Source of the DNA: Patescibacteria group bacterium
GTDB taxonomy: Bacteria; Patescibacteriota; Minisyncoccia; Phycocordibacterales; UBA1550
Direction: 5' to 3'
Assembly (NCBI GenBank): GCA_038062675.1
Contig: JBBTWP010000001.1
Span: 122,059 to 186,058, forward strand
Length of the DNA stretch: 64,000 bases
The notes beneath the pieces are model-generated. The model made no database searches, had not been told where the DNA came from, and worked only from the letters and a program-made list of their open reading frames with translations. The position numbers and the translations under genes are program-made. Below, one piece after another: positions 1,147 through 61,730 of the stretch. Position 1 is the first letter of the stretch; the number at the start of each line of letters is the position of its first letter.

Positions 1147-1457
1147 TCGACCATTATACCACTGCGACAAAACTCCGCACTTGTGTCGCATTTGCTTGTG
1201 AAGCTCAAGTGCGCACAAACGCACACCCGTTGCCTTGCTGGGTACAATTTGCTATACTTTTTGTATGAAAGATATCTATATTTCCAGCGGGCTTTTCGCA
1301 AGACCTTCTTTTGTCGAGGGGGTATCACGAGTAATGGATTTGGGCGCAACCCTCCAAGAGTACAATATTTCAGAGACAGAACAAGAAGCTGACATAAAAG
1401 CACTTAAAAATGACTGGCAAGTGGTCGGGGGGGATTTAAACTTTTCTATAAAAACCT

Positions 1458-1868
1458 ATGAACAAGGGCTTGCAAAATAATCTTAACCAAAATCAGTTAG
1501 TGATTCAGCAAAGCTCGGTTCAGTCGTTTTCTGGACCACTTCCGCATCCAGATATCCTGCGCAAATTTAATGAGGTGCTTCCTGGGGCTGCTGAAAGAAT
1601 TATAAAAATGGCCGAGGACCAATCTGCGCACAGAAAATGGCTTGAGAAAAAGGTGATTGATTCTGACATCTCTCGCTCAAAATGGGGGCAAATTCTCGGT
1701 TTTATCATGGGGATGACGGGGATTGTTGCTTCGGTTGTTATCGCAATTTTTGGGAGTCCAATCGCAGGCAGTATTATGGGTGTTGGTACTCTCGCCTCAC
1801 TTGTGGGAGTCTTTATGTATGGCTCAAAGACTCGAAGCAAAGAAAGAGAGAAGGGGAAGGAAGAGTAG
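1458..1868 (+). CDS. DUF2335-like membrane protein
   Basis: GPLPHPDILRKFNEVLPGAAERIIKMAEDQSAHRKWLE motif followed by two C-terminal TM helices. Confidence 0.55.
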   Translation: MNKGLQNNLNQNQLVIQQSSVQSFSGPLPHPDILRKFNEVLPGAAERIIKMAEDQSAHRKWLEKKVIDSDISRSKWGQILGFIMGMTGIVASVVIAIFGSPIAGSIMGVGTLASLVGVFMYGSKTRSKEREKGKEE

Positions 1869-1980
1869 GCATTCTTGGGAAAATTTACTAGAAAGACGGA
1901 ATTATTTTTGTGCAGAGGTTTAACTTTTTTTGGAAGAAGAAACGTGTTGATTATTTCACAAAAGGGAGTACTATGGAGGT

Positions 1981-3486
1981 ATGAAAAAGATATTAATCTC
2001 ACTAGTGTTTGTTGCTCTTGTTGCACCACAAATCGCTCTCGCGTCCTGGTGGAATCCGTTTACATGGAAGATTTTTACCAAACCAACGGAGGTGCCGATT
2101 GAAGAGCCAAAAAAACAAATCATAGAAGTTGAGGATCAAAAGGCAATCATAACCGCCACGAGTACTGTAAAGGTTGAGCAACCAAAAAGGGAAGTGGCCG
2201 AGTCAAAAAAAGAGTCAATTGATTCTCGCGCAAGTGAAATTGCAAAACTGAAAAAGGAAGTGGAGGAGTTGAAGAGGGTGCAAAGCACAATACAGGTTGT
2301 GGTAAAACAGCCAGTCCCACCTCCTGAAATTGCTAAAGTTACAAAACCAGTAGTCCTCATTGTTCCACAAGTGGAAGAAAAAAAGATGAACACCGTGTCT
2401 TTCCCAAATGGATCTGTTGCCGAAATAGATACAAGTGGGAATATTGTGCGATGGATAAAAGAGGTGCCTCAGCAAGCATACATTTCTCCCACATCAACAC
2501 AGGATCAAGTTTCAGTGACAGTTCAAATCTCATCAATTAATGTTGTTGCAACGGTTAATTCAGCCAGAATTGAATGGCAAACAAACACCCCAACAAACTC
2601 AAAAGTCTTCCTTTCTGGGTGGATGGTGGAAGGGGCGAAGGCGGATGAGAGAATGGTGCGACTACAAGAGGTTTATAACTCCGAATCTGGGTTATCTACT
2701 CGACACATGGTCAATGTATCAGGACTAAGTAGTGGTACAAATTACTCGTACGAGATTGAATCTATTAACGGGAACCAACAAGTTGCAAAAAAGGTTGGGT
2801 TATTCACAACGAATGCACCAAAACCAGACGAATATACTATCTCCGTACAACCTGATAAAATTTCAGTACCTGCCAGCGGTTGGCATAGTGTTTCTATTAA
2901 AGTTAGCACTCTCAAAAACGGACAGAGTCAGTCCAATCAAAATGTTTTAATAACCACCCCAGATTCCTCTCAAAACCGCTCCAGCAGCAATGGAAACAAT
3001 ACCTTCACCTATTATCCAAAGACAGTTGGAGCGCATAAGTTAGATTTTTCATGGAACGGAGTTACTAAGAGTGTTGATATTCAGGCAACTTCTTATCAAA
3101 AGGTAGAACAGATTACCCTTAATGTTTTAGATAGTAATGTGATTATTCCATTAGGAACTACAAATTATATTATTGGCAAGTTTACATTATCGGGGTCTGA
3201 TGAATTAACTCGCATCACGAAGGCTACTCTGGACTCTACTAGTCAGAAAAATTTAATTGGATTTTGGGATGGAAGCACGTCAATTGGTCAGAGTGGTGGT
3301 ACTGTCATATCATTTACCGGGGAACGAGCATCCGACTCATTAACAATTACGCTTAGGTCCAGCGAGGTTGTAGATGTTGGGAAACATACCATAACAATTA
3401 ACTCAATCGAGATGATTGGACAAAATTCTGGCACAACTCGCCAAGTTTCTGGTCTACCTATTACTTTTCACTACGAAGTTCAATAA
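1981..3486 (+). CDS. secreted surface protein (signal peptide, coiled-coil, FN3/Ig-like repeats)
   Basis: N-terminal signal peptide MKKILISLVFVALVAPQIALA. Charged coiled-coil segment, then beta-rich repeats (ARIEWQTNTPTNSKVFLSG...GTNYSYEIESI, resembling FN3). Confidence 0.65.
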   Translation: MKKILISLVFVALVAPQIALASWWNPFTWKIFTKPTEVPIEEPKKQIIEVEDQKAIITATSTVKVEQPKREVAESKKESIDSRASEIAKLKKEVEELKRVQSTIQVVVKQPVPPPEIAKVTKPVVLIVPQVEEKKMNTVSFPNGSVAEIDTSGNIVRWIKEVPQQAYISPTSTQDQVSVTVQISSINVVATVNSARIEWQTNTPTNSKVFLSGWMVEGAKADERMVRLQEVYNSESGLSTRHMVNVSGLSSGTNYSYEIESINGNQQVAKKVGLFTTNAPKPDEYTISVQPDKISVPASGWHSVSIKVSTLKNGQSQSNQNVLITTPDSSQNRSSSNGNNTFTYYPKTVGAHKLDFSWNGVTKSVDIQATSYQKVEQITLNVLDSNVIIPLGTTNYIIGKFTLSGSDELTRITKATLDSTSQKNLIGFWDGSTSIGQSGGTVISFTGERASDSLTITLRSSEVVDVGKHTITINSIEMIGQNSGTTRQVSGLPITFHYEVQ

Positions 3487-3492
3487 AAGAAT

Positions 3493-3747
3493 ATGAATAA
3501 AAATATAAAAATTATTTTAACTATTGCGATATTTATTATTGGTGTCTGGACTTACGGTCACTCAAAAGCAAAAGACAATTGTCGACAAAAAATATCATAT
3601 TACCCAGCAAGAGAAACACCTGATTTTATGGGTGGGATAAGTAAGGAGTCTGCTTATTTTCAATACTTTGACTCAAACATTAACAAATTTGAATCAAGAG
3701 AAGAAGCAATGGAGTATTGCATCTCAGGAAAAGGAAATAAAGAATAA
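3493..3747 (+). CDS. small membrane-anchored hypothetical protein
   Basis: 84-aa ORF with N-terminal TM helix, 6 nt after the previous stop, same strand. Confidence 0.4.
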   Translation: MNKNIKIILTIAIFIIGVWTYGHSKAKDNCRQKISYYPARETPDFMGGISKESAYFQYFDSNINKFESREEAMEYCISGKGNKE

Positions 3748-3753
3748 ATTTTT

Positions 3754-4176
3754 ATGCACCAACTAAAAGTTATTCAGGGGAAATCAGAGGAAATAAATAA
3801 GGATATTATTCGCGTTCATGAGTCCGAAAGAAAAACAAGCAGTGGCAAAAAAATTAAAACCGGCATGGTTTGCAAGGTTTTTGCGGGGGGAACCAACAAA
3901 AGTACTTACGCAATTTTAAGAGGTCACTTAAGTGAAAAGGAGGATAAACAGAACATCTGTATTGATGAAACCTTACGAGAAAAACTCACTGTAGCCGTAA
4001 GTAAATCCTATGAGTTTGAGTTTAGGGAAGCAAGTCGTTGGTGGGGTTGGTGGCGTTGGGCATGGGGTGCTAGTGATCCTGGCTACCAAATTAGCATAAG
4101 AATTGCAGTTGTCCTCGGATTTTTTTCTATAATACTAGGACTAGCTCCTTTTTTGCTTGCATACTTTAAATGTTAA
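3754..4176 (+). CDS. hypothetical protein with C-terminal TM anchor
   Basis: 140-aa ORF, tightly spaced after 3493..3747. Trp-rich segment then a C-terminal hydrophobic helix. Confidence 0.4.
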   Translation: MHQLKVIQGKSEEINKDIIRVHESERKTSSGKKIKTGMVCKVFAGGTNKSTYAILRGHLSEKEDKQNICIDETLREKLTVAVSKSYEFEFREASRWWGWWRWAWGASDPGYQISIRIAVVLGFFSIILGLAPFLLAYFKC

Positions 4177-4196
4177 TAAATCAAGGAGGGCAAGAG

Positions 4197-4272
4197 CGGC
4201 GTGGTATAATAACGATATGCTAAAAACAGGACAACAAGCGCCGCTTGATATCGTGGTCACAGATGGTGAAGG
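4197..4272. repeat. direct repeat copy A (duplicated bcp promoter + first 19 codons)
   Basis: 76 bp, about 68/76 identical to 4765..4840. Contains TGGTATAAT (4202-4210) and the ATG at 4217. Confidence 0.85.
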
Positions 4273-4300
4273 CGCGCCTGCTCGCTCGAAAAAATATTGA
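4217..4300 (+). pseudogene. truncated 5-prime remnant of bcp (27 codons)
   Basis: Encodes MLKTGQQAPLDIVVTDGEG, identical or near-identical to the Bcp N-terminus at 4785, then diverges and stops at 4298. Confidence 0.6.
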
Positions 4301-4303
4301 GTT

Positions 4304-4738
4304 ATGAATAAAAAGATTTACATTGGAGTATATGGAATTATTATTAATGATGGGAGGATCCTCCTCATTAAAAAGGCAAGGGGGCCGTACAAGGGGATGT
4401 ACGATCTTCCTGGTGGCGGAATAGAATATGGTGAGTCGTTTGAAAAAACACTTGAACGTGAATTCCTTGAAGAAACGGGGCTAAAGGTTAGATCGCTTAA
4501 GTTTATTCAAAACAATCAATTCACGGCGGAGTATAAGAATAGCAAAGGGGAAGAACATGGCCTACATCACATCGGTGTATATTACTCGGTAGAATCAGAA
4601 GCAGGCAGTAATATTAAAACTGATGCTGATGGTGAGGATTCTCTTGGTGCTGAATACATTGATATCAACAAGCTTCCGGATATAGAGATTTCGCCAATCG
4701 CACGACCTGTAGTAGAAAGATTTCTTAAATACATCTAG
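4304..4738 (+). CDS. NUDIX hydrolase
   Basis: Nudix box GGGIEYGESFEKTLEREFLEETGL. Lies between the two bcp-derived repeats. Confidence 0.8.
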   Translation: MNKKIYIGVYGIIINDGRILLIKKARGPYKGMYDLPGGGIEYGESFEKTLEREFLEETGLKVRSLKFIQNNQFTAEYKNSKGEEHGLHHIGVYYSVESEAGSNIKTDADGEDSLGAEYIDINKLPDIEISPIARPVVERFLKYI

Positions 4739-4764
4739 TCAATGTATCAAGCTGAGATTCGTAA

Positions 4765-4840
4765 CGGCGTGGTATAATCATAGTATGTTAAAAATAGGAC
4801 AACAAGCGCCGCTTGATATTGTGGTCACGGATGGTGAAGG
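4765..4840. repeat. direct repeat copy B (native bcp promoter/5-prime end)
   Basis: Partner of 4197..4272. Confidence 0.85.
4770..4787 (+). promoter_or_regulatory. extended -10 promoter with leaderless start (TGGTATAAT-N6-ATG)
   Basis: TGGTATAAT at 4770-4778, with the bcp ATG 6 nt downstream. The same architecture occurs at 4202-4219 and, on the minus strand, at 1161-1144. Confidence 0.5.
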
Positions 4841-5255
4841 GAAGGAGGTGTCGCTCAAAGACATGCTGGGGTCGTATGTGGTGTTGTACGCATACCCAAA
4901 AGACCAAACGCCAGGGTGCGTGAAGGAGGCGTGCAGTATTCGTGATGTGTATGGGGAGTTCAAGGAGCTTGGCGTGACGGTCGTTGGTATTAGTGCGGAC
5001 AGTGCGAGCTCGCATAAAAAGTTTACCGATGCGCACAAGCTTAATTTTCCTCTGTGGTCGGATGTGAACCACGAGCTTTTGACCGCACTCGGTGTCTGGG
5101 GTGAAAAGAAATTCATGGGCAAGACATATATGGGTATTGCGCGCACAACATTTTTAATCGACAAAGAGGGGATTGTGGCGCACGTCTGGGAGAAGGTAAA
5201 ACCCGAAGGTCACGGCGAGGAAGTGCTTGATTTCGTGAAGAAGATTGTTATGTAA
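4785..5255 (+). CDS. bcp: thiol peroxidase Bcp (peroxiredoxin)
   Basis: YPKDQTPGCVKEAC peroxidatic Cys motif, AhpC/TSA fold, 156 aa. Confidence 0.85.
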   Translation: MLKIGQQAPLDIVVTDGEGKEVSLKDMLGSYVVLYAYPKDQTPGCVKEACSIRDVYGEFKELGVTVVGISADSASSHKKFTDAHKLNFPLWSDVNHELLTALGVWGEKKFMGKTYMGIARTTFLIDKEGIVAHVWEKVKPEGHGEEVLDFVKKIVM

Positions 5256-5304: not shown

Positions 5305-6135
5305 ATGCCAAAAGAGCGCAAACTACGACGGGAGGAGATTGAGGCCTTTAGGGCGCAGATTTGGGCGTTTTATAGTGCTTGTGGGAGGCATGACCTGCCG
5401 TGGCGGGTGACGAAAGACCCCTATAAAATACTGGTCTCGGAGGTGATGCTTCAGCAGACGCAGGTGGCGCGGGTGGAGGAAAAATTCCCGAAATTTTTAT
5501 GGAAGTTTCCGACAGTGGGGGAGCTGGCAAAGGCGCCACTCAAAGAGGTGCTCGCGGTGTGGGCGGGGATGGGGTACAATCGTCGAGCACTTGCGCTCAA
5601 ACGTTGTGCAGAAAAAATTGTAGCCGAGCATAGAGGGAAAGTTCCAAGGGGGCGCGACGAGCTCGAAGCGCTACCCGGGATTGGTCCCTACACTGCTGGT
5701 GCGATTCGCGCATTTGCATTTGATGAACCGGAAGTTTTTATCGAGACGAATATTCGACGGGTGTTTATTCATCAGTTTTTTGGTAACCAAGAGGGGATAG
5801 GTGACAAAGAAATTTTGCCACTGGTGGAGGCGACGCTCGACCGTGGGCAACCACGTGAATGGTACTGGGCGCTCATGGACTATGGTGCAGAGTTGCCCAA
5901 AGTCGTGCGAAAAAATCCGAACGTGCAGAGCAGACACTATGTAAAACAAAGTACGTTCAAGGGGTCGCTACGGGAGGTGCGGGGGAAGATAGTTCGTGTG
6001 TTGAGTGAGGGGTCGGGGACGCTGGTGGCGATTCGCCGTGCGTGCGAGGGTGACGCACGTACGAAAGAAGCGCTCGATGCGCTCACAAAAGATGGCTTAG
6101 TATATTATGAAAAAAGAAAATACCAACTTGCCTAA
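5305..6135 (+). CDS. HhH-GPD DNA glycosylase, MutY-like N-terminal domain
   Basis: VSEVMLQQTQV, then GMGYNRRALALKRCA and LPGIGPYTAGAI (HhH-GPD). No obvious 4Cys cluster. Overlaps nth by 29 nt. Confidence 0.65.
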   Translation: MPKERKLRREEIEAFRAQIWAFYSACGRHDLPWRVTKDPYKILVSEVMLQQTQVARVEEKFPKFLWKFPTVGELAKAPLKEVLAVWAGMGYNRRALALKRCAEKIVAEHRGKVPRGRDELEALPGIGPYTAGAIRAFAFDEPEVFIETNIRRVFIHQFFGNQEGIGDKEILPLVEATLDRGQPREWYWALMDYGAELPKVVRKNPNVQSRHYVKQSTFKGSLREVRGKIVRVLSEGSGTLVAIRRACEGDARTKEALDALTKDGLVYYEKRKYQLA

Positions 6136-6730
6136 AATCATGCGTGTCCTCACGCGGCTTCTTCCTGACCCCAAGTGCGCCCTCAACTACAGCACGCCAT
6201 TTGAGCTTCTTGTTGCGGTCGTGTTGTCTGCGCAGTGCACTGACAAGAAGGTGAATGAGGTGACGGAGAAGCTTTTTAAAAAATACCGCACACTCAATGA
6301 CTATGTGAATGCAGACCCGCGCACGTTTGAGCAAGACATTTTCTCGACGGGATTTTATAAAAACAAAACAAAAAATATTCTTGCGGCGGCGGACGCAGTC
6401 AAAAAAGATTTTGCAGGAAAAATTCCAAAAACGATGGGGGAGATGGTCACGATTCCCGGCGTGGGGAGGAAGACGGCGAACGTGGTCTTGGGCGAGCATT
6501 ATGGATATGCAGAGGGGATTGCGGTTGATACGCACGTCATCCGGCTTACAAGACTTTTGGGGCTCACCAAACACCGCGACGCGGTGAAGATAGAACGCGA
6601 CCTGATGGAGATTGTCCCCAAAAAAGACTGGGTGCGATTTTCGCATCTGCTTATCTTGTACGGGCGCGCGTATTGTCCGGCGCATTGCAAGCACAAGGAC
6701 TGTCCGCTCGCGAAATTTTATAGCATCTGA
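6107..6730 (+). CDS. nth: endonuclease III
   Basis: LSAQCTDKKVN and IPGVGRKTANVVL HhH-GPD motifs, plus the C-terminal CPAHCKHKDCPLAKF 4Fe-4S Cys cluster. Confidence 0.85.
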   Translation: MKKENTNLPKIMRVLTRLLPDPKCALNYSTPFELLVAVVLSAQCTDKKVNEVTEKLFKKYRTLNDYVNADPRTFEQDIFSTGFYKNKTKNILAAADAVKKDFAGKIPKTMGEMVTIPGVGRKTANVVLGEHYGYAEGIAVDTHVIRLTRLLGLTKHRDAVKIERDLMEIVPKKDWVRFSHLLILYGRAYCPAHCKHKDCPLAKFYSI

Positions 6731-26299: not shown

Positions 26300-26307
26300 C
26301 GATTCTG

Positions 26308-26384
26308 CGGAATCGTGTCGCGTAAGTCCTTTAGACGCGACCAACCTGCGGGATCGTGTCGCGTAAGTCCTTTAGACGCGACCA
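26308..26384. repeat. two tandem 36-bp repeats, each an internal hairpin
   Basis: GGAATCGTGTCGCGTAAGTCCTTTAGACGCGACCAA x2 with 1 mismatch and a 5-bp gap. Each has a GTCGCGT/ACGCGAC 7-bp stem. Confidence 0.7.
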
Positions 26385-26418
26385 AAAGTCATACACTAAG
26401 AAAAGCTAGCATGCAAGG

Positions 26419-28515: not shown

Positions 28516-28971
28516 ATGACCTTACACGAACAAATCAAAAACGAAGTAAAAGACGCGATGCGTGCCAAAGACGCCATTCGCCTATCAGTAGTACGCGGAA
28601 TTCTTGCCGCTGCCACCAATGAGCTCGTTGCCATTGGCAAAATGCCTCAGGATATGCTCGATGACGTAGGCGTGCTCAAGGTCATAAAACGCCTCTCCAA
28701 CCAACGCAAAGATTCAATAAAGCAATTCACCGACGGTGGACGTCCTGAACTTGCCGAAAGCGAACAGGCTGAGCTCGCAATCCTTGATAAGTATCTCCCC
28801 GCCCTTATGCCGTGGGGTGAGATAAAGAAAATTGCAATCGCAAAAAAAGAAGCTCTCGGTATAACCGACAAGGCAAAAGCAGGTCAGCTCACCGGCGCCA
28901 TCATGAAAGACCTCGCGGGCAAGGCAGACGGCGGCGATGTGAAAGCAGTGGTAGACGAGCTTTTTGTGTAA
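28516..28971 (+). CDS. GatB/YqeY domain protein
   Basis: HEQIKNEVKDAMRAKD...VVRGILAA...AELAILDKYLP YqeY pattern. Start set at an internal Met. Confidence 0.7.
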   Translation: MTLHEQIKNEVKDAMRAKDAIRLSVVRGILAAATNELVAIGKMPQDMLDDVGVLKVIKRLSNQRKDSIKQFTDGGRPELAESEQAELAILDKYLPALMPWGEIKKIAIAKKEALGITDKAKAGQLTGAIMKDLAGKADGGDVKAVVDELFV

Positions 28972-28973
28972 GC
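28894..28973. repeat. direct repeat A (native yqeY 3-prime end)
   Basis: 80 bp, about 76/80 identical to 31488..31567. Confidence 0.85.
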
Positions 28974-28974
28974 T

Positions 28975-31458
28975 CTAGTCCCTCCGCAACTTTTCTTTGT
29001 AGAGATCCAGCCCTAGCAAAACCCAAGCCACTTCATAAAAACCTGCGTACTTGAAAGCATCGACCGACGCGATTTTTCTGTCAAAAATCTCACTCCCCAT
29101 AGTTTTGTTTACCAGACTCACGCCCGTCAACATGGCACCATAGCTTGCGAGCGATCCATACGGCACCTCAGATACTCCAGCCTGAGTGTAAACCGCAAAT
29201 ATTTCACCTTTTGCTACCCAGTCCCGTGCAAACACAGTGTTTTTATTCAAATGTGCAAGCCCGCGAGATTCGCCATACCAAAGGTAGTCCATAGCAACTC
29301 GATAGGGCACCCGCAGTGCATCATAAGAGTACCTCGAGCTCTCTGTTCCATTGAGCTTAAAATCCGCGATCAAGTTCCCTTGGGCGTCAAGGCTACACCA
29401 ATCCATCGCCAGCCCAAGAGCACCAGTACACATAGCAAGCACTTTGTACGAAGAGTCGACAAGCGACATCCACGCATGCTCAGTGTCAAAAGTAGCAAAC
29501 GCTCGGTACTGATAGGGAGCAAGGTAGGATGGGTTGACGACAATACCCGGATAGTAGAGCACTGCCCAGTTCCCTGCCCCCACATAACGCGTACCTGCAA
29601 CTTCTTTTGTTTCTACATTCCAAATATCCCGAACAATTTCTTTTGCCTGATTAAGGTATGCCACATCCCCCCATTTTTTGTATGCCAAATAAAGTGCATA
29701 AGCGATATCCTGATCCGCGTCAGTCGCTGGATTTTTGTCGGGAATAGCACCATTTTCCCACACCCAAGAAAAGAGTTTGTCTGTGGGACGAGTTTGCAGT
29801 GTGCTTCGCGTCCAGTTCCAGACGTTGTCAAACGTGCTCCGGTCGTTCGCAAGAATGGCAATGAGCATGCCGTATGACTGGCTTTCGGATGTCGTTCTAT
29901 TGGTACCACTTTCAACTCTTCCATTTGCAAGGAAATATTTTTCTTTGGTGGTTGTTAAAGTTTTCTGAACGACGGCTTCAATGCCTGAGAGATCGAGGCT
30001 CGTAGGAGTGGGTGCGGGTGCCGTCACAGGGGTTGGTGTTGGTGCGGGCGGAGGAGGGAGCGTGGAAAGCGCAAGAGTTGAACGAATCACATCCAGAAAT
30101 TTCTGTGCGATCTTTGCATGTGCTACTTCTGTCGGATGAATGCCGTCGTACAAGTCAGCGGTTGTTAATACTGAATTTACGTCCACAAAACGAACATTTT
30201 GACCGAGCGCAACACGCGCATCCACATTTTGGCGTATGACGGTGTTAAACTGCTGGACCAAGAGCGAGCGGTCAATATTGTTGGGCTTAACAAGAGCAGA
30301 AGACTGGGGCGGAATAGATGCAACAAAAATCCACGCCGTAGGACGCGCTACGCGTAGTTGGTCAATGAGTGCATTGTGACGAGCCCCAATTTGATTTGCG
30401 TTTTCAGCAGTCCACCACGCAATGTCGTTGGTGCCCGCCATAAGAAGAATGATGTTTGGTTGCGTAGATGTAAGCCAAGGGTTTACATCGCGGGCAATGC
30501 CACCAATCGTAAATCCTGAGTGTCCCTCGTGGTCCTTGTCGGCAACGCGCGTCCATTGGTCGGATTGCGTTCCCACGTAACTCACTCCGCAATTATTCTT
30601 TTGAAGCTCTGTGTATAGATTATTGCGATACCCGCCATTCACACCAAGAGTAATTGAGTCCCCTAAAGGTAGTATGTTGGCACAACTTTGCAATTGGGTG
30701 CTTGTGGATGGCGATGTAACTGGTGGCGGGATTGGAGCCACGGGTGGAGGTGTGGCAACAACAGGTGGTGGGGCAACAACTGGTGGTGGAGTTGGAACCA
30801 CGGGTGGTGGTGTGACTTGGGCTGGTATTGAAACAACAACGGGCGGTGGTGTGACTTGGGCTGGTATTGAAACAACAACGGGCGGTGGTGTGACAACAAC
30901 AGGTGGCGGGATTGGAACCACGGGCGGTGGTGTGACAATAACAGGTGATGGAGTTGGTGGCGGAATAACGACCGGAGGGGTCACAGCAGAAGCTACTGGC
31001 GGCAAAGGAGCCCTCGATGGTGTGCTTGGTGCCGGAACATCTTTTCCTCCCCCATTTGTTGTGGTAATACTTACGGTGACCACCTTATTTGAAGCAGGAG
31101 AAATTGCCGGCGAGGATTTTGTTGAAGGAGCAAGCGGAGCCAGCTCTTTCTTTGCTAGCGTAGAGTTGCGAGTGGCAGAGACTGTTCCCTGTGGAGCCAC
31201 AGAGCGAACATCCTTCGCCACCAAAGAAACAGGTGCCGTAACTCCTGTTTCTTTTTTCACAACGGGAAGAGGAGTATTCGCCACTTTGGTGACTACAGAA
31301 GAAGTAGTGTCAGTGAAATCTGAAAATGGAGGTGTACGAGGAGTCGGAGTCGCCTCCAAAGTCAGGACACCAAGAACAATAACAATTCCTGAGGAAATCA
31401 CCAAAAAAAACCGTATCCAATTTTTATAAAGAAACCACACGTGCTTGAATTGTAGCAC
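28975..31458 (-). CDS. secreted bifunctional SGNH esterase + GH8 glycoside hydrolase with Pro-rich linker
   Basis: N-terminal TM/signal. PPPVV repeat linker. SGNH blocks GDSITLG, GTND, DGIHPT. GH8 signature ATDADQDIAYALYLAYKKW and SQSYGMLIAIL. Confidence 0.8.
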   Translation of the reverse strand: MLQFKHVWFLYKNWIRFFLVISSGIVIVLGVLTLEATPTPRTPPFSDFTDTTSSVVTKVANTPLPVVKKETGVTAPVSLVAKDVRSVAPQGTVSATRNSTLAKKELAPLAPSTKSSPAISPASNKVVTVSITTTNGGGKDVPAPSTPSRAPLPPVASAVTPPVVIPPPTPSPVIVTPPPVVPIPPPVVVTPPPVVVSIPAQVTPPPVVVSIPAQVTPPPVVPTPPPVVAPPPVVATPPPVAPIPPPVTSPSTSTQLQSCANILPLGDSITLGVNGGYRNNLYTELQKNNCGVSYVGTQSDQWTRVADKDHEGHSGFTIGGIARDVNPWLTSTQPNIILLMAGTNDIAWWTAENANQIGARHNALIDQLRVARPTAWIFVASIPPQSSALVKPNNIDRSLLVQQFNTVIRQNVDARVALGQNVRFVDVNSVLTTADLYDGIHPTEVAHAKIAQKFLDVIRSTLALSTLPPPPAPTPTPVTAPAPTPTSLDLSGIEAVVQKTLTTTKEKYFLANGRVESGTNRTTSESQSYGMLIAILANDRSTFDNVWNWTRSTLQTRPTDKLFSWVWENGAIPDKNPATDADQDIAYALYLAYKKWGDVAYLNQAKEIVRDIWNVETKEVAGTRYVGAGNWAVLYYPGIVVNPSYLAPYQYRAFATFDTEHAWMSLVDSSYKVLAMCTGALGLAMDWCSLDAQGNLIADFKLNGTESSRYSYDALRVPYRVAMDYLWYGESRGLAHLNKNTVFARDWVAKGEIFAVYTQAGVSEVPYGSLASYGAMLTGVSLVNKTMGSEIFDRKIASVDAFKYAGFYEVAWVLLGLDLYKEKLRRD
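30802..30879. repeat. in-frame 39-bp tandem duplication inside the Pro-rich linker
   Basis: GGGYGGTGGTGTGACTTGGGCTGGTATTGAAACAACAAC x2, encoding VTPPPVVVSIPAQ x2. Confidence 0.8.
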
Positions 31459-31487
31459 AAAGTGCCATCAGTAAACCAACCCACACG

Positions 31488-31567
31488 GGCGCCATCATGG
31501 AAGACCTCGCGGGCAAGGCAGACGGCGGCGATGTGAAAGCAGTGGTAGACGAGCTCTTTGCATAAGC
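31488..31567. repeat. direct repeat B (orphan copy of the yqeY 3-prime end)
   Basis: Would encode ...GAIMEDLAGKADGGDVKAVVDELFA*. It is detached from any 5-prime part of yqeY. Confidence 0.85.
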
Positions 31568-47946: not shown

Positions 47947-48230
47947 CTATCTATATATCATATTTTTGCCCAAAAAGCAAGGGCTGGCATGGGGAAAACT
48001 TTGAGAATAGGCACGAAATGCTGGATTTTGTTGGAAAGTCGGTGGTGCAGGGGTGTCATGGTGCCGGAATACAACTTATTGACTTCGCAAAGGGTTTGCA
48101 CTGTATGCCCGATTATGATAAAATGCAAATAGGAGTATGCAATAATAACTTACGTGGTGCTCTGGTGTTCCCACAGAGGATCTGTGACTTAAGCTAGAGA
48201 CTGACACTGCGTGAGACCGCTACTTCTAAC

Positions 48231-59693: not shown

Positions 59694-61730
59694 TTATTCC
59701 CCTGCTTCGTTGCGTGCTTTGAGTGCAGCGATTTCGTCGCGGATGATGGCGGCGGTTTCAAAGTCGAGTTCTTTGACGGCGCGGTTCATTTCTTTTTCTT
59801 TAAGCTTGAGGAGTTTTGCAAAATCTTTTCCAAAGACTTGTCCGTCGACGTCGAGGTTGAACTTCACCGCTTTCATGTGTGCGGTTTCGAGATGTTCGGT
59901 GATGTCTTTGATACTCTTGATGATGGTCTTAGGTGTAATGCCGTGTTCTTTGTTGTATGCGACTTGAATGGCGCGACGACGATTGGTTTCGCCAACAGCG
60001 CGCTCGATGGAGCCCGTGATAACATCGGCATAGAGAATTACGCGCCCTAGCACATTGCGAGCTGCGCGCCCAATGGTCTGGATGAGTGCTGTTTCAGAGC
60101 GCAAAAATCCCTCTTTGTCGGCGTCGAGGATGCCAATGAGCGCAACTTCAGGAAGATCGAGTCCTTCGCGGAGCAGGTTCACGCCAACAATACAATCAAA
60201 CGTACCCTTGCGAAACTCGGTGAGTATCTGAATCCGTTCGATGGTCTTGATGTCACTGTGAAGGTACTCAGCTTTTACACCTTCCCCTTTTAAATATTCT
60301 GACAAATCTTCTGCCATTTTTTTGGTGAGGGTGGTGGCAATGACGCGGTGACCACCTGCGACCACTTTCTTTGTCTCGGCGATGAAATCTTGGATTTGCC
60401 CGCCATAGCTACCTTTCTCGCCAATTGGTCGTAAAATAATTTCGGGGTCGATGAGGCCCGTGGGGCGAATGATTTGCTCCACTACTTGCTTGCTCGTCTC
60501 GCGCTCGTGAGTTGCAGGAGTTGCGGAGGTGTAAATGACTTGCCCGACGCGTTCATTGAACTCTTCGAAGCGAAGAGGACGGTTGTCTTGGGCGCTTGGC
60601 AGACGAAAACCGAATTCGACGAGGGTTTTTTTGCGTGACTGGTCACCGGCATACATGCCACCAATTTGCGGAATGGTCACGTGCGATTCGTCGATGATGG
60701 TGAGAAAGTCGGGCTTGCCGTCTTTGGTGCGAGGGAAATATGAAAGGAGTGTGTCTGGGGGTGAACCAGCCGCGCGCCCTGACATGTGGCGTGAATAGTT
60801 TTCGATACCATTGCAATACCCCATCTCGCGAATCATAGCGAGGTCGTAGGTAGTGCGGCGTTTGATGCGCTCGGCTTCGAGGAGTTTACCCTCCTTTTCA
60901 AATTTTTTAAGTTGTGTGGCAAGTTCGGCTTTGATGACTTTGAGTGCCTTGGTCTTTGCCGCTTCGTTGGTGATGAAGTGTTTTGCAGGGAAGATGAAAA
61001 TGGCGGGTTCGGTTCCCACAATTTTTTGTGAGACGGGGTCAACTTTTTGGATGGATGCAATCCCCTGCATGTCGAGCGTAAGACTCCAAATCATTTTTTC
61101 TGAGACGGGCATGATTTCAAGCAGTGAGCCAATAGAGCGAAAGGTTCCCGGAGTGAGGTCGGCGTTGGTGCGCTCAAAGTGAATGGCGATGAGTTTTTTC
61201 ATGAGCTCTTTGCGATCCATTTTTTGTCCAACGGCAAGTTTCAAATTTTCTTTTTCATATTCCGCTGGCGAACCGAGACCGTAGATACAGGACACCGATG
61301 CAACAATAATCACGTCGCGACGCGTCAGGAGTGCCTGTGTCGAGGCATGGCGGAGGCGGTCAATTTCTTCGTTGATCTGAGCGTCTTTCTCAATGTACGT
61401 GTCGGTGACCGGCATGTACGCCTCTGGCTGATAATAGTCATAGTACGACACAAAGTAGTGCACTGCGTTGTTGGGGAAAAATTCTTTGTACTCTTGCGCA
61501 AGCTGTGCGGCGAGAGTTTTGTTGTGTGCGATAACGAGTGTCGGCTTCCCTATTTCCGCAATAACGTTTGCGGCGGTGAATGTTTTCCCGGAGCCAGTCA
61601 CACCCAAAAGCGTCTGGCGGTCAAAGCCTTTTTTGAGTCCAGAAACGAGCTTTTTGATCGCTTCGGGCTGGTCGCCAGCGGGAGGCCAGTCGGATGTGAG
61701 GTTAAATGTGGACATTGGTTGTGTTGACAA
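59694..61730 (-). CDS. uvrB: excinuclease ABC subunit B
   Basis: GVTGSGKTFT Walker A, helicase motifs, C-terminal UVR domain (AAIIRDEIAALK). Confidence 0.9.
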   Translation of the reverse strand: MSTQPMSTFNLTSDWPPAGDQPEAIKKLVSGLKKGFDRQTLLGVTGSGKTFTAANVIAEIGKPTLVIAHNKTLAAQLAQEYKEFFPNNAVHYFVSYYDYYQPEAYMPVTDTYIEKDAQINEEIDRLRHASTQALLTRRDVIIVASVSCIYGLGSPAEYEKENLKLAVGQKMDRKELMKKLIAIHFERTNADLTPGTFRSIGSLLEIMPVSEKMIWSLTLDMQGIASIQKVDPVSQKIVGTEPAIFIFPAKHFITNEAAKTKALKVIKAELATQLKKFEKEGKLLEAERIKRRTTYDLAMIREMGYCNGIENYSRHMSGRAAGSPPDTLLSYFPRTKDGKPDFLTIIDESHVTIPQIGGMYAGDQSRKKTLVEFGFRLPSAQDNRPLRFEEFNERVGQVIYTSATPATHERETSKQVVEQIIRPTGLIDPEIILRPIGEKGSYGGQIQDFIAETKKVVAGGHRVIATTLTKKMAEDLSEYLKGEGVKAEYLHSDIKTIERIQILTEFRKGTFDCIVGVNLLREGLDLPEVALIGILDADKEGFLRSETALIQTIGRAARNVLGRVILYADVITGSIERAVGETNRRRAIQVAYNKEHGITPKTIIKSIKDITEHLETAHMKAVKFNLDVDGQVFGKDFAKLLKLKEKEMNRAVKELDFETAAIIRDEIAALKARNEAGE

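Follow-up and report, generated by a model that had tools for sequence, protein, structure and literature searches.

A NUDIX hydrolase gene between two allele-like copies of the bcp promoter and 5′ end in a Patescibacteria genome

In a 64,000-nt stretch of a Patescibacteria group bacterium genome (assembly GCA_038062675.1, contig JBBTWP010000001.1, positions 122,059 to 186,058 of the forward strand; called the window below and numbered from its first letter), a gene for a NUDIX hydrolase lies between two copies of the promoter and 5′ end of bcp, the gene for a thioredoxin-dependent thiol peroxidase. Only the downstream copy continues into a complete bcp gene, and the upstream copy is an orphan. 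The site is empty in the closest relative, the two copies have diverged as alleles of a constrained gene do, no recombinase gene was found locally, and similar orphan ends recur at other genes. We read the locus as a recombination scar left by homology-anchored, integrase-free integration of related Patescibacteria DNA beside bcp, a reading to which we give a probability of about 0.5. The orphan promoter probably drives the NUDIX gene.

The repeat pair at bcp and the empty site in relatives

A repeat search of the locus returned a direct repeat of 76 nt, with copy A at 4197–4272 and copy B at 4765–4840 (features in the window are on the plus strand unless stated otherwise). The copies start 568 nt apart and agree at 68 of 76 positions (89%), so that the repeat of promoter, ATG and about 19 bcp codons described in the original prediction stood on realignment, and a search of the whole 64-kb window recovered the pair again as a single direct-repeat family, D3. 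By our own binomial estimate, the chance expectation for such a pair in 64 kb is ∼5e-23, and copy A matches the orthologous sequence of locus L009, from a relative, with a BLAST E value of 6e-25. Each copy comprises the extended −10 box TGGTATAAT, a 6-nt spacer, the ATG, 18 full bcp codons and 2 nt of codon 19. The box of copy A is located at 4202–4210 and is followed by the spacer AACGAT and an ATG at 4217; that of copy B is located at 4770–4778 and is followed by the spacer CATAGT. Copy B opens into the full bcp gene of 156 aa (4785–5255; AhpC-TSA, 3e-40; NCBIfam NF006960, 162.5 bits against a cut-off of 140), whereas copy A opens into the dead-end peptide that had been predicted, an open reading frame (ORF) of 27 codons at 4217–4300 which encodes MLKTGQQAPLDIVVTDGEGAPARSKKY and is made of 19 bcp codons, eight out-of-context codons and the stop codon TGA.

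Between the copies, as predicted, is the NUDIX gene (4304–4738, 144 aa; PF00293, E = 5.6e-20, 72.2 bits against a cut-off of 21.1). No NCBIfam subfamily or equivalog model, MutT included, reached its cut-off for this protein. The gene starts 31 nt past copy A and ends 26 nt short of copy B. The linker on the left (4273–4303) has no homology to the upstream flank of the NUDIX gene in any relative, and the linker on the right occupies 4739–4764. At 4270–4279, orphan and insert meet within a perfect 10-nt palindrome, AGGCGCGCCT. The longest run identical between the copies is the 24-nt sequence AGGACAACAAGCGCCGCTTGATAT, and a second palindrome of 13 nt, CAAGCG-C-CGCTTG, lies inside this core at 4235–4247.

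If the assembler had fused the bcp upstream regions of two strains that occur together, the same picture might result, and the metagenomic source, a strain-rich groundwater community sampled at Hainich well H41, together with the allele-like nature of the copies, would suit such an artefact. An artefact of the assembly graph is nevertheless very unlikely because the identical run between the copies is only 24 nt, shorter than the assumed k-mer sizes of ∼31 or more. Moreover, the region 4151–4900 (750 nt) is letter-identical in five contigs (two from ENA and three from Logan assemblies), which come from different samples and two pipelines, and the junction between orphan and NUDIX gene is unique sequence that must exist in the reads. 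We consider an artefact hardly credible.

The closest relative of bcp is found in L009 (94% aa and 91% nt identity). In this locus, the glyoxalase and bcp promoters stand back-to-back, and homology to the window covers 708–1159 and then 4769–5242, its left edge being the glyoxalase promoter (1147–1161, minus strand). The window segment 1162–4768 (∼3.6 kb), which consists of a 3.0-kb low-GC block, copy A and the NUDIX gene, is absent from L009. Thus the expectation that related bcp loci lack the NUDIX gene was borne out, but the missing segment is far larger than the 568-bp unit that had been envisaged. The strain-specific low-GC block (1162–4196) encodes a 71-aa ORF, a DUF2335 protein (136 aa), a 501-aa secreted FN3-like protein, and ORFs of 84 and 140 aa, and no repeats were found to flank it. 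A third, degraded copy of the bcp 5′ end at ∼1162–1225 was hinted at by MAFFT and was rejected, its local alignment score being no higher than that of background windows. Kinship of the 140-aa gene upstream of copy A with the 140-aa gene upstream of the NUDIX gene in L179 was also considered, and the two have no homology.

At larger distances, L010 and L011 (bcp identity 88%) carry a Mur ligase gene upstream of bcp and the same mutY-like and nth genes downstream, and L183 and L187 (71–73%) carry a small GIY-YIG gene upstream. A NUDIX gene at bcp was found in none of the L009, L010, L011, L183 and L187 loci. Scans of genome and metagenome contigs with the bcp protein returned only bcp loci of ≤59% aa identity, which are useless as orthologous loci. 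The GIY-YIG nuclease-domain gene (83–84 aa) is conserved directly upstream of bcp among the 70–73% relatives (2902–3153 in L183, 4627–4881 in L188). Its apparent presence/absence polymorphism between L187 and L188, which had hinted at homing, was rejected: L187 and L188 align collinearly at 99.3% identity, and the difference is one of gene calling alone.

The relatives of the NUDIX gene itself (78–85% aa identity) stand elsewhere, after a 210-aa ORF, after a 140-aa ORF or beside other NUDIX genes. DNA homology to these relatives begins just 2 nt ahead of the ATG and ends with the stop codon, and none of them adjoins bcp or bears the 76-nt repeats. The idea of the NUDIX gene as a bounded cargo cassette was not sustained by these contexts, and a cassette inserted by short terminal homology is probably too simple a description of the locus. 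In viral contigs there was no match for the NUDIX protein or for the repeat core, and a virus- or plasmid-like carrier is unsupported.

Recurrence, allelic divergence and origin of the scar

The predicted recurrence of gene-end repeats was confirmed in the window at yqeY and extended to three further loci. The intact yqeY gene ends at 28890–28973 (84 nt comprising the last 27 codons, the stop codon and 2 nt), and an orphan 3′ fragment at 31484–31567 is 94% identical to this end and keeps its frame and stop codon. A single cargo gene on the minus strand, encoding an 827-aa GDSL lipase/glycoside hydrolase family 8 protein (28975–31458), lies between them. Relatives of the window yqeY gene carry the label Candidatus Yonathbacteria. 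In L012, an ABC2 permease gene has its 3′ end repeated, at 3653–3710 and 5514–5571 (58 nt, 91% identity, four of five differences synonymous), on either side of a 1.8-kb insert with a Ham1 fragment, an IS200-like Y1 transposase gene and two NUDIX genes. In L016, the 3′ end of a NUDIX gene is present at 1129–1175 and 1949–2018 (47-nt repeat, 89%) with a 242-aa gene as cargo. As at bcp, the yqeY, L012 and L016 pairs each consist of a truncated copy and a copy belonging to an intact gene. The last pair, in L059, a Gaiellaceae metagenome-assembled genome (DATAMX010000170.1), again involves the bcp 5′ end (4300–4384 and 6010–6094; 85 nt, 95%, with a 77-nt identical core); here the orphan is 1.7 kb upstream of bcp and the cargo is unrelated, a 258-aa ORF and a NIPSNAP-like gene. 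The five repeats thus involve four different targets (bcp 5′, yqeY 3′, ABC2 permease 3′ and NUDIX 3′ ends), and beyond words of the −10 box no shared motif or common palindrome was found among the five repeat families.

An unplanned control was available in 160 bcp loci from other phyla (1.25 Mb), reused from the distant matches of the collection. The L059 orphan is the only gene-terminus orphan among them; the remaining repeats of similar size were rejected as repeats within giant genes, paralogues or palindromic repeats between genes. Orphans occurred at 2 per 124 kb in Patescibacteria loci without the window, versus 1 per 1,251 kb elsewhere (Fisher p = 0.023; p = 0.0013 with the window included), in a crude test on loci that were not sampled independently. 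Gene-end orphans hence look enriched in Patescibacteria, in what is a small sample.

Divergence between the paired ends has the character of allelic divergence. Copies A and B differ in their bcp codons by three synonymous changes and one non-synonymous change, and pooling of all five gene-terminus pairs gave 13 synonymous and 10 non-synonymous differences (pN/pS 0.24, binomial p = 7e-4 versus neutrality; by our own estimate, p ∼0.03–0.04 versus a model with constraint on one copy only). The orphan NUDIX 3′ fragment of L016 bears the C-terminal extension of the 162-aa allele of L179 (5386–5454) and differs from the end of the adjacent intact 144-aa NUDIX gene, which makes it the other allele type. 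The yqeY orphan ends in ELFA, the commonest ending among 120 relatives, and shows a K-to-E change at a site that is K in 115 of the 117 relatives scored and R in the other two, which fits the other allele with slight decay. Finally, copy A matches L009 at 66 of 72 positions and copy B at 63 of 72, and the AACGAT spacer is common to copy A and L009. Because of the synonymous bias, the allele mismatch in L016, the state of the yqeY orphan and the closeness of copy A to L009, these sequences indicate that an orphan and its intact counterpart are two alleles joined by recombination and not an on-the-spot duplication, although for the bcp locus itself such an origin is supported rather than proven.

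The repeat had originally been taken as a duplication made by the insertion. The copies could also have arisen in situ and diverged later, if staggered breaks left a long target-site duplication or if replication switched template, copied foreign DNA and re-entered upstream. Such an origin would agree with several features: A and B differ at 4 of 54 coding positions and each differs from L009 at 5–6 of 54, two derived synonymous states are common to A and B, the insert is tight, in that only 31 nt of non-ORF sequence precede the NUDIX gene and only 26 nt follow it, and a palindrome marks the junction. However, the synonymous bias, which extends to changes private to the non-functional copy A, speaks against such a duplication, and so does the 11% divergence between A and B, as large as the divergence from L009, which has no insert. 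Nor can duplication in situ yield an L016 orphan of another allele type than its neighbour. We hold this origin to be distinctly improbable, and the repeat is better taken as two joined alleles.

Pfam scans and precomputed Pfam labels revealed no recombinase gene in any of the five inserts, nor in the ∼6 kb that flank bcp on each side; the yqeY region was covered too. The only transposase seen in the inserts is the Y1 enzyme of L012, whose family is not known to make target duplications. A recombinase could also act in trans, moving an integrase-less NUDIX cassette which carries a mimic of the bcp 5′ end and promoter and thereby leaves the target gene intact; the repeats would be the attachment (att) sites attL and attR. 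Such a cassette would account for the compact insert directly flanked by repeats with a 24-nt identical core, for the palindrome CAAGCG-C-CGCTTG within this core, and for the resemblance of the left half of A and the right half of B to L009 and L010, which is the chimera expected from crossover in the core. That chimera, though, rests on ∼8 sites (Fisher p ∼0.1, our own estimate), and private changes in one allele explain it equally well. The narrow size range of the five repeats (47–85 nt), the second bcp 5′ repeat in another phylum (L059) and known elements of such logic (PMC4482086, PMC5704250) also lend themselves to this explanation. On the other side, the recombinase gene is missing from all five inserts and from the flanks examined, the repeats have no motif in common and lie in four different target genes, the NUDIX relatives lack a bcp-like site and lose homology at the ORF ends, and viral contigs contain nothing related. 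A cassette of this kind therefore appears unlikely, if still worth keeping in mind.

Integrase-free integration of DNA from a related lineage is favoured because Patescibacteria show natural competence and their gene exchange is mostly with one another (PMC10633639, PMC12455944). Two routes may be envisaged. In the first, one side of a linear fragment would cross over by homology, and its other side would be joined illegitimately at bcp codon 19; in the second, a circularised fragment bearing a 5′ piece of bcp would enter by a single crossover. Either route would set the 5′ ends of two alleles of bcp one behind the other, with B leading into the functional gene and A reduced to the 76-nt orphan, provided that the NUDIX gene was already directly upstream of bcp in one parent. 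The incoming DNA could be either the NUDIX gene with copy B, from the right, or the 3.0-kb block with copy A, from the left. Selection would retain only junctions that leave one intact bcp, which would explain why a gene terminus is what is repeated. The orphan leaderless promoter would then drive an otherwise promoterless NUDIX gene, translated by termination and reinitiation after the 27-codon ORF. Both integrase-free routes have been documented by experiment or proposed for similar scars; for example, in E. coli, single crossover of circles with a gene-end fragment gives lacZ-end duplications of 109–950 bp (PMC3240628). The linear and circular routes are not separable here because the mismatch profile against L009 is flat.

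Several points weigh against the integration model. The numbers are small, with 23 substitutions overall and only four coding differences at the bcp locus. No crossover point was detected in bcp, where the mismatch profile is nearly flat against L009, a sequence too diverged (9%) for this purpose. The 3.0-kb block lacks a repeat and requires at least one further event or another history. The donor arrangement, a NUDIX gene directly upstream of bcp with no orphan, was not found among the retrieved relatives. Moreover, all five orphans fall within 47–85 nt, and random illegitimate joints predict no such narrow range, which fixed homology or att sites would. Expression of the NUDIX gene from copy A is a prediction; metatranscriptomes have been described for the Hainich wells (PMC12960796).

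A bolder possibility is that Patescibacteria own a recombinase-independent means of adding single genes at gene termini through ∼50–85 bp of homology, a natural analogue of recombineering, which may operate, for example, during natural transformation or via a single-strand annealing protein. We think this quite unlikely. If true, a dedicated route of gene addition would account for the narrow repeat lengths, the seeming enrichment in the phylum and the very tight cargo, and leftover fragments of leaderless promoters would be reused routinely to express the new gene.

Predicted expression of the NUDIX gene and its neighbourhood

The 9-mer TGGTATAAT occurs three times in the 64-kb window, against 0.36 occurrences expected. 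Beside the two bcp copies, it is present at 1153–1161 on the minus strand, in the leaderless-type promoter (1147–1161) of the divergent glyoxalase gene, with a 6-nt spacer and the ATG at 1146. More generally, the arrangement TGnTAnAAT, 6–9 nt and ATG is found ahead of the glyoxalase, mutY-like, DUF1653 and 214-aa genes. Because this arrangement recurs before other genes of the window, the box of the bcp copies is plausibly a leaderless promoter, and the original assignment appears reasonable.

The claim that the upstream copy drives the NUDIX gene is plausible as well. The gene is probably transcribed from copy A, because the extended −10 box of the orphan is intact and its leaderless ATG is retained. 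No terminator-like site was found between 4217 and 4304, and the NUDIX gene has no TGnTAnAAT box of its own. The leader from copy A to the NUDIX gene contains no structured RNA and no known RNA family, and a transcript of 104 nt leading from copy A to the beginning of the NUDIX gene (4217–4320) has no significant fold (z = −0.09). The TGA of the 27-codon ORF is only 3 nt ahead of the NUDIX ATG. In relatives, the NUDIX start overlaps the stop codon of an upstream ORF by 4–8 nt or closely follows it, and the gene has no promoter of its own there. Since such overlaps of stop and start couple the NUDIX gene to upstream ORFs in relatives, the 27-codon remnant is probably a leaderless upstream ORF from which translation is coupled to the NUDIX gene by reinitiation. 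On either side of the NUDIX stop codon are the arms of a 14-nt inverted repeat (4649–4662 and 4739–4752; 86% complementary and 76 nt apart), after which there is no T-run.

Downstream of bcp are the gene for a MutY-like glycosylase of 276 aa (5305–6135), which lacks the C-terminal NUDIX-like domain and scores below the TIGR01084 cut-off, and the gene for endonuclease III (ORF 6107–6730, called from window position 6140 in L001), both of them conserved neighbours; the order of mutY-like and endonuclease III genes downstream of bcp is also that of L010. The NUDIX gene thereby comes to stand ahead of an oxidative-damage cluster of bcp, MutY-like glycosylase and endonuclease III, a position which suggests a possible role in nucleotide-pool sanitation. 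A stand-alone NUDIX gene is now two genes upstream of a MutY-like glycosylase without a NUDIX-like domain, and a functional link between the two is speculative.

Other features of the window lie apart from this locus. A DUF3800-V RNA was identified with Rfam at 48131–48227 (72.3 bits, gathering score 37.4). ARAGORN called a 96-nt tRNA-Thr(GGT) at 60933–61028, inside a 678-aa ORF on the minus strand; this call is probably a false positive, as Rfam has no tRNA there at the gathering score. Two tandem 40-nt units, 98% identical and each with a hairpin GTCGCG...CGCGAC, are located at 26305–26385, just downstream of rmuC on the minus strand.

The locus offers a sequence-level view of single-gene gain in streamlined, naturally competent Patescibacteria. 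The gain apparently came about through recombination with diverged relatives, which leaves behind short orphan ends of genes, and needed no recombinase from a mobile element within the insert. An orphan with a full leaderless promoter and start codon would be a simple route to immediate expression of a promoterless incoming gene. If the seeming enrichment holds, such orphans could mark recent gene gain in metagenome-assembled genomes in an easily scored way.

Comparison with known systems of gene acquisition

Integron cassettes resemble the bcp insert in that a single promoterless gene is served by an upstream promoter and has similar short repeats at both sides. They differ in having the attC hairpin site, whereas the bcp repeat is a conserved part of a core gene and shows none of the imperfect inverted repeats typical of attC. 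The repeat sequence, coding part and promoter alike, is conserved in relatives without the insert, which argues against an attC site, and neither an IntI gene nor an attI site was seen around the bcp locus.

The genomic islands at the 5′ end of dusA are likewise inserted at a gene terminus, have direct repeats made by that terminus, and supply a replacement 5′ end and promoter, which keeps the target gene whole (PMC4482086). Like the bcp insert, cis-mobilizable elements (CIMEs) are flanked by att-type sequences and lack a recombinase gene (PMC5704250). Both, however, are members of families in which the integrase is dedicated, the target fixed and the att core conserved; at bcp the insert is a single gene of 435 bp, and no integrase, shared core or fixed target was found.

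In the arrays of type VI secretion system (T6SS) effector-immunity, Rhs and contact-dependent inhibition (CDI) genes, according to the sequential displacement model, an incoming module also displaces a gene end that is left downstream as an orphan. Those loci encode toxins and immunity proteins; their 5′ part is conserved, and their 3′ cassettes vary under diversifying selection. By contrast, the orphans described here derive from housekeeping genes (bcp, yqeY, ABC permease and NUDIX), the cargo is unrelated to them, and one orphan is a 5′ end with its promoter.

Further parallels are homology-facilitated illegitimate recombination, known in naturally competent bacteria according to work cited in PMC5361080, and Campbell-type single crossover. 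Like the events proposed for the bcp locus, these routes need no integrase and only one homologous anchor, and they leave foreign DNA beside a partial duplicate of the end of the anchor gene (109–950 bp of lacZ, PMC3240628). The bcp case differs from them in that the event is inferred from natural genomes, the repeats are shorter (47–85 nt), the copies are diverged alleles and the orphan promoter has apparently been co-opted. The structure is thus of a known kind, a recombination scar with orphan gene termini, found here in a little-studied phylum and combined with probable promoter capture.

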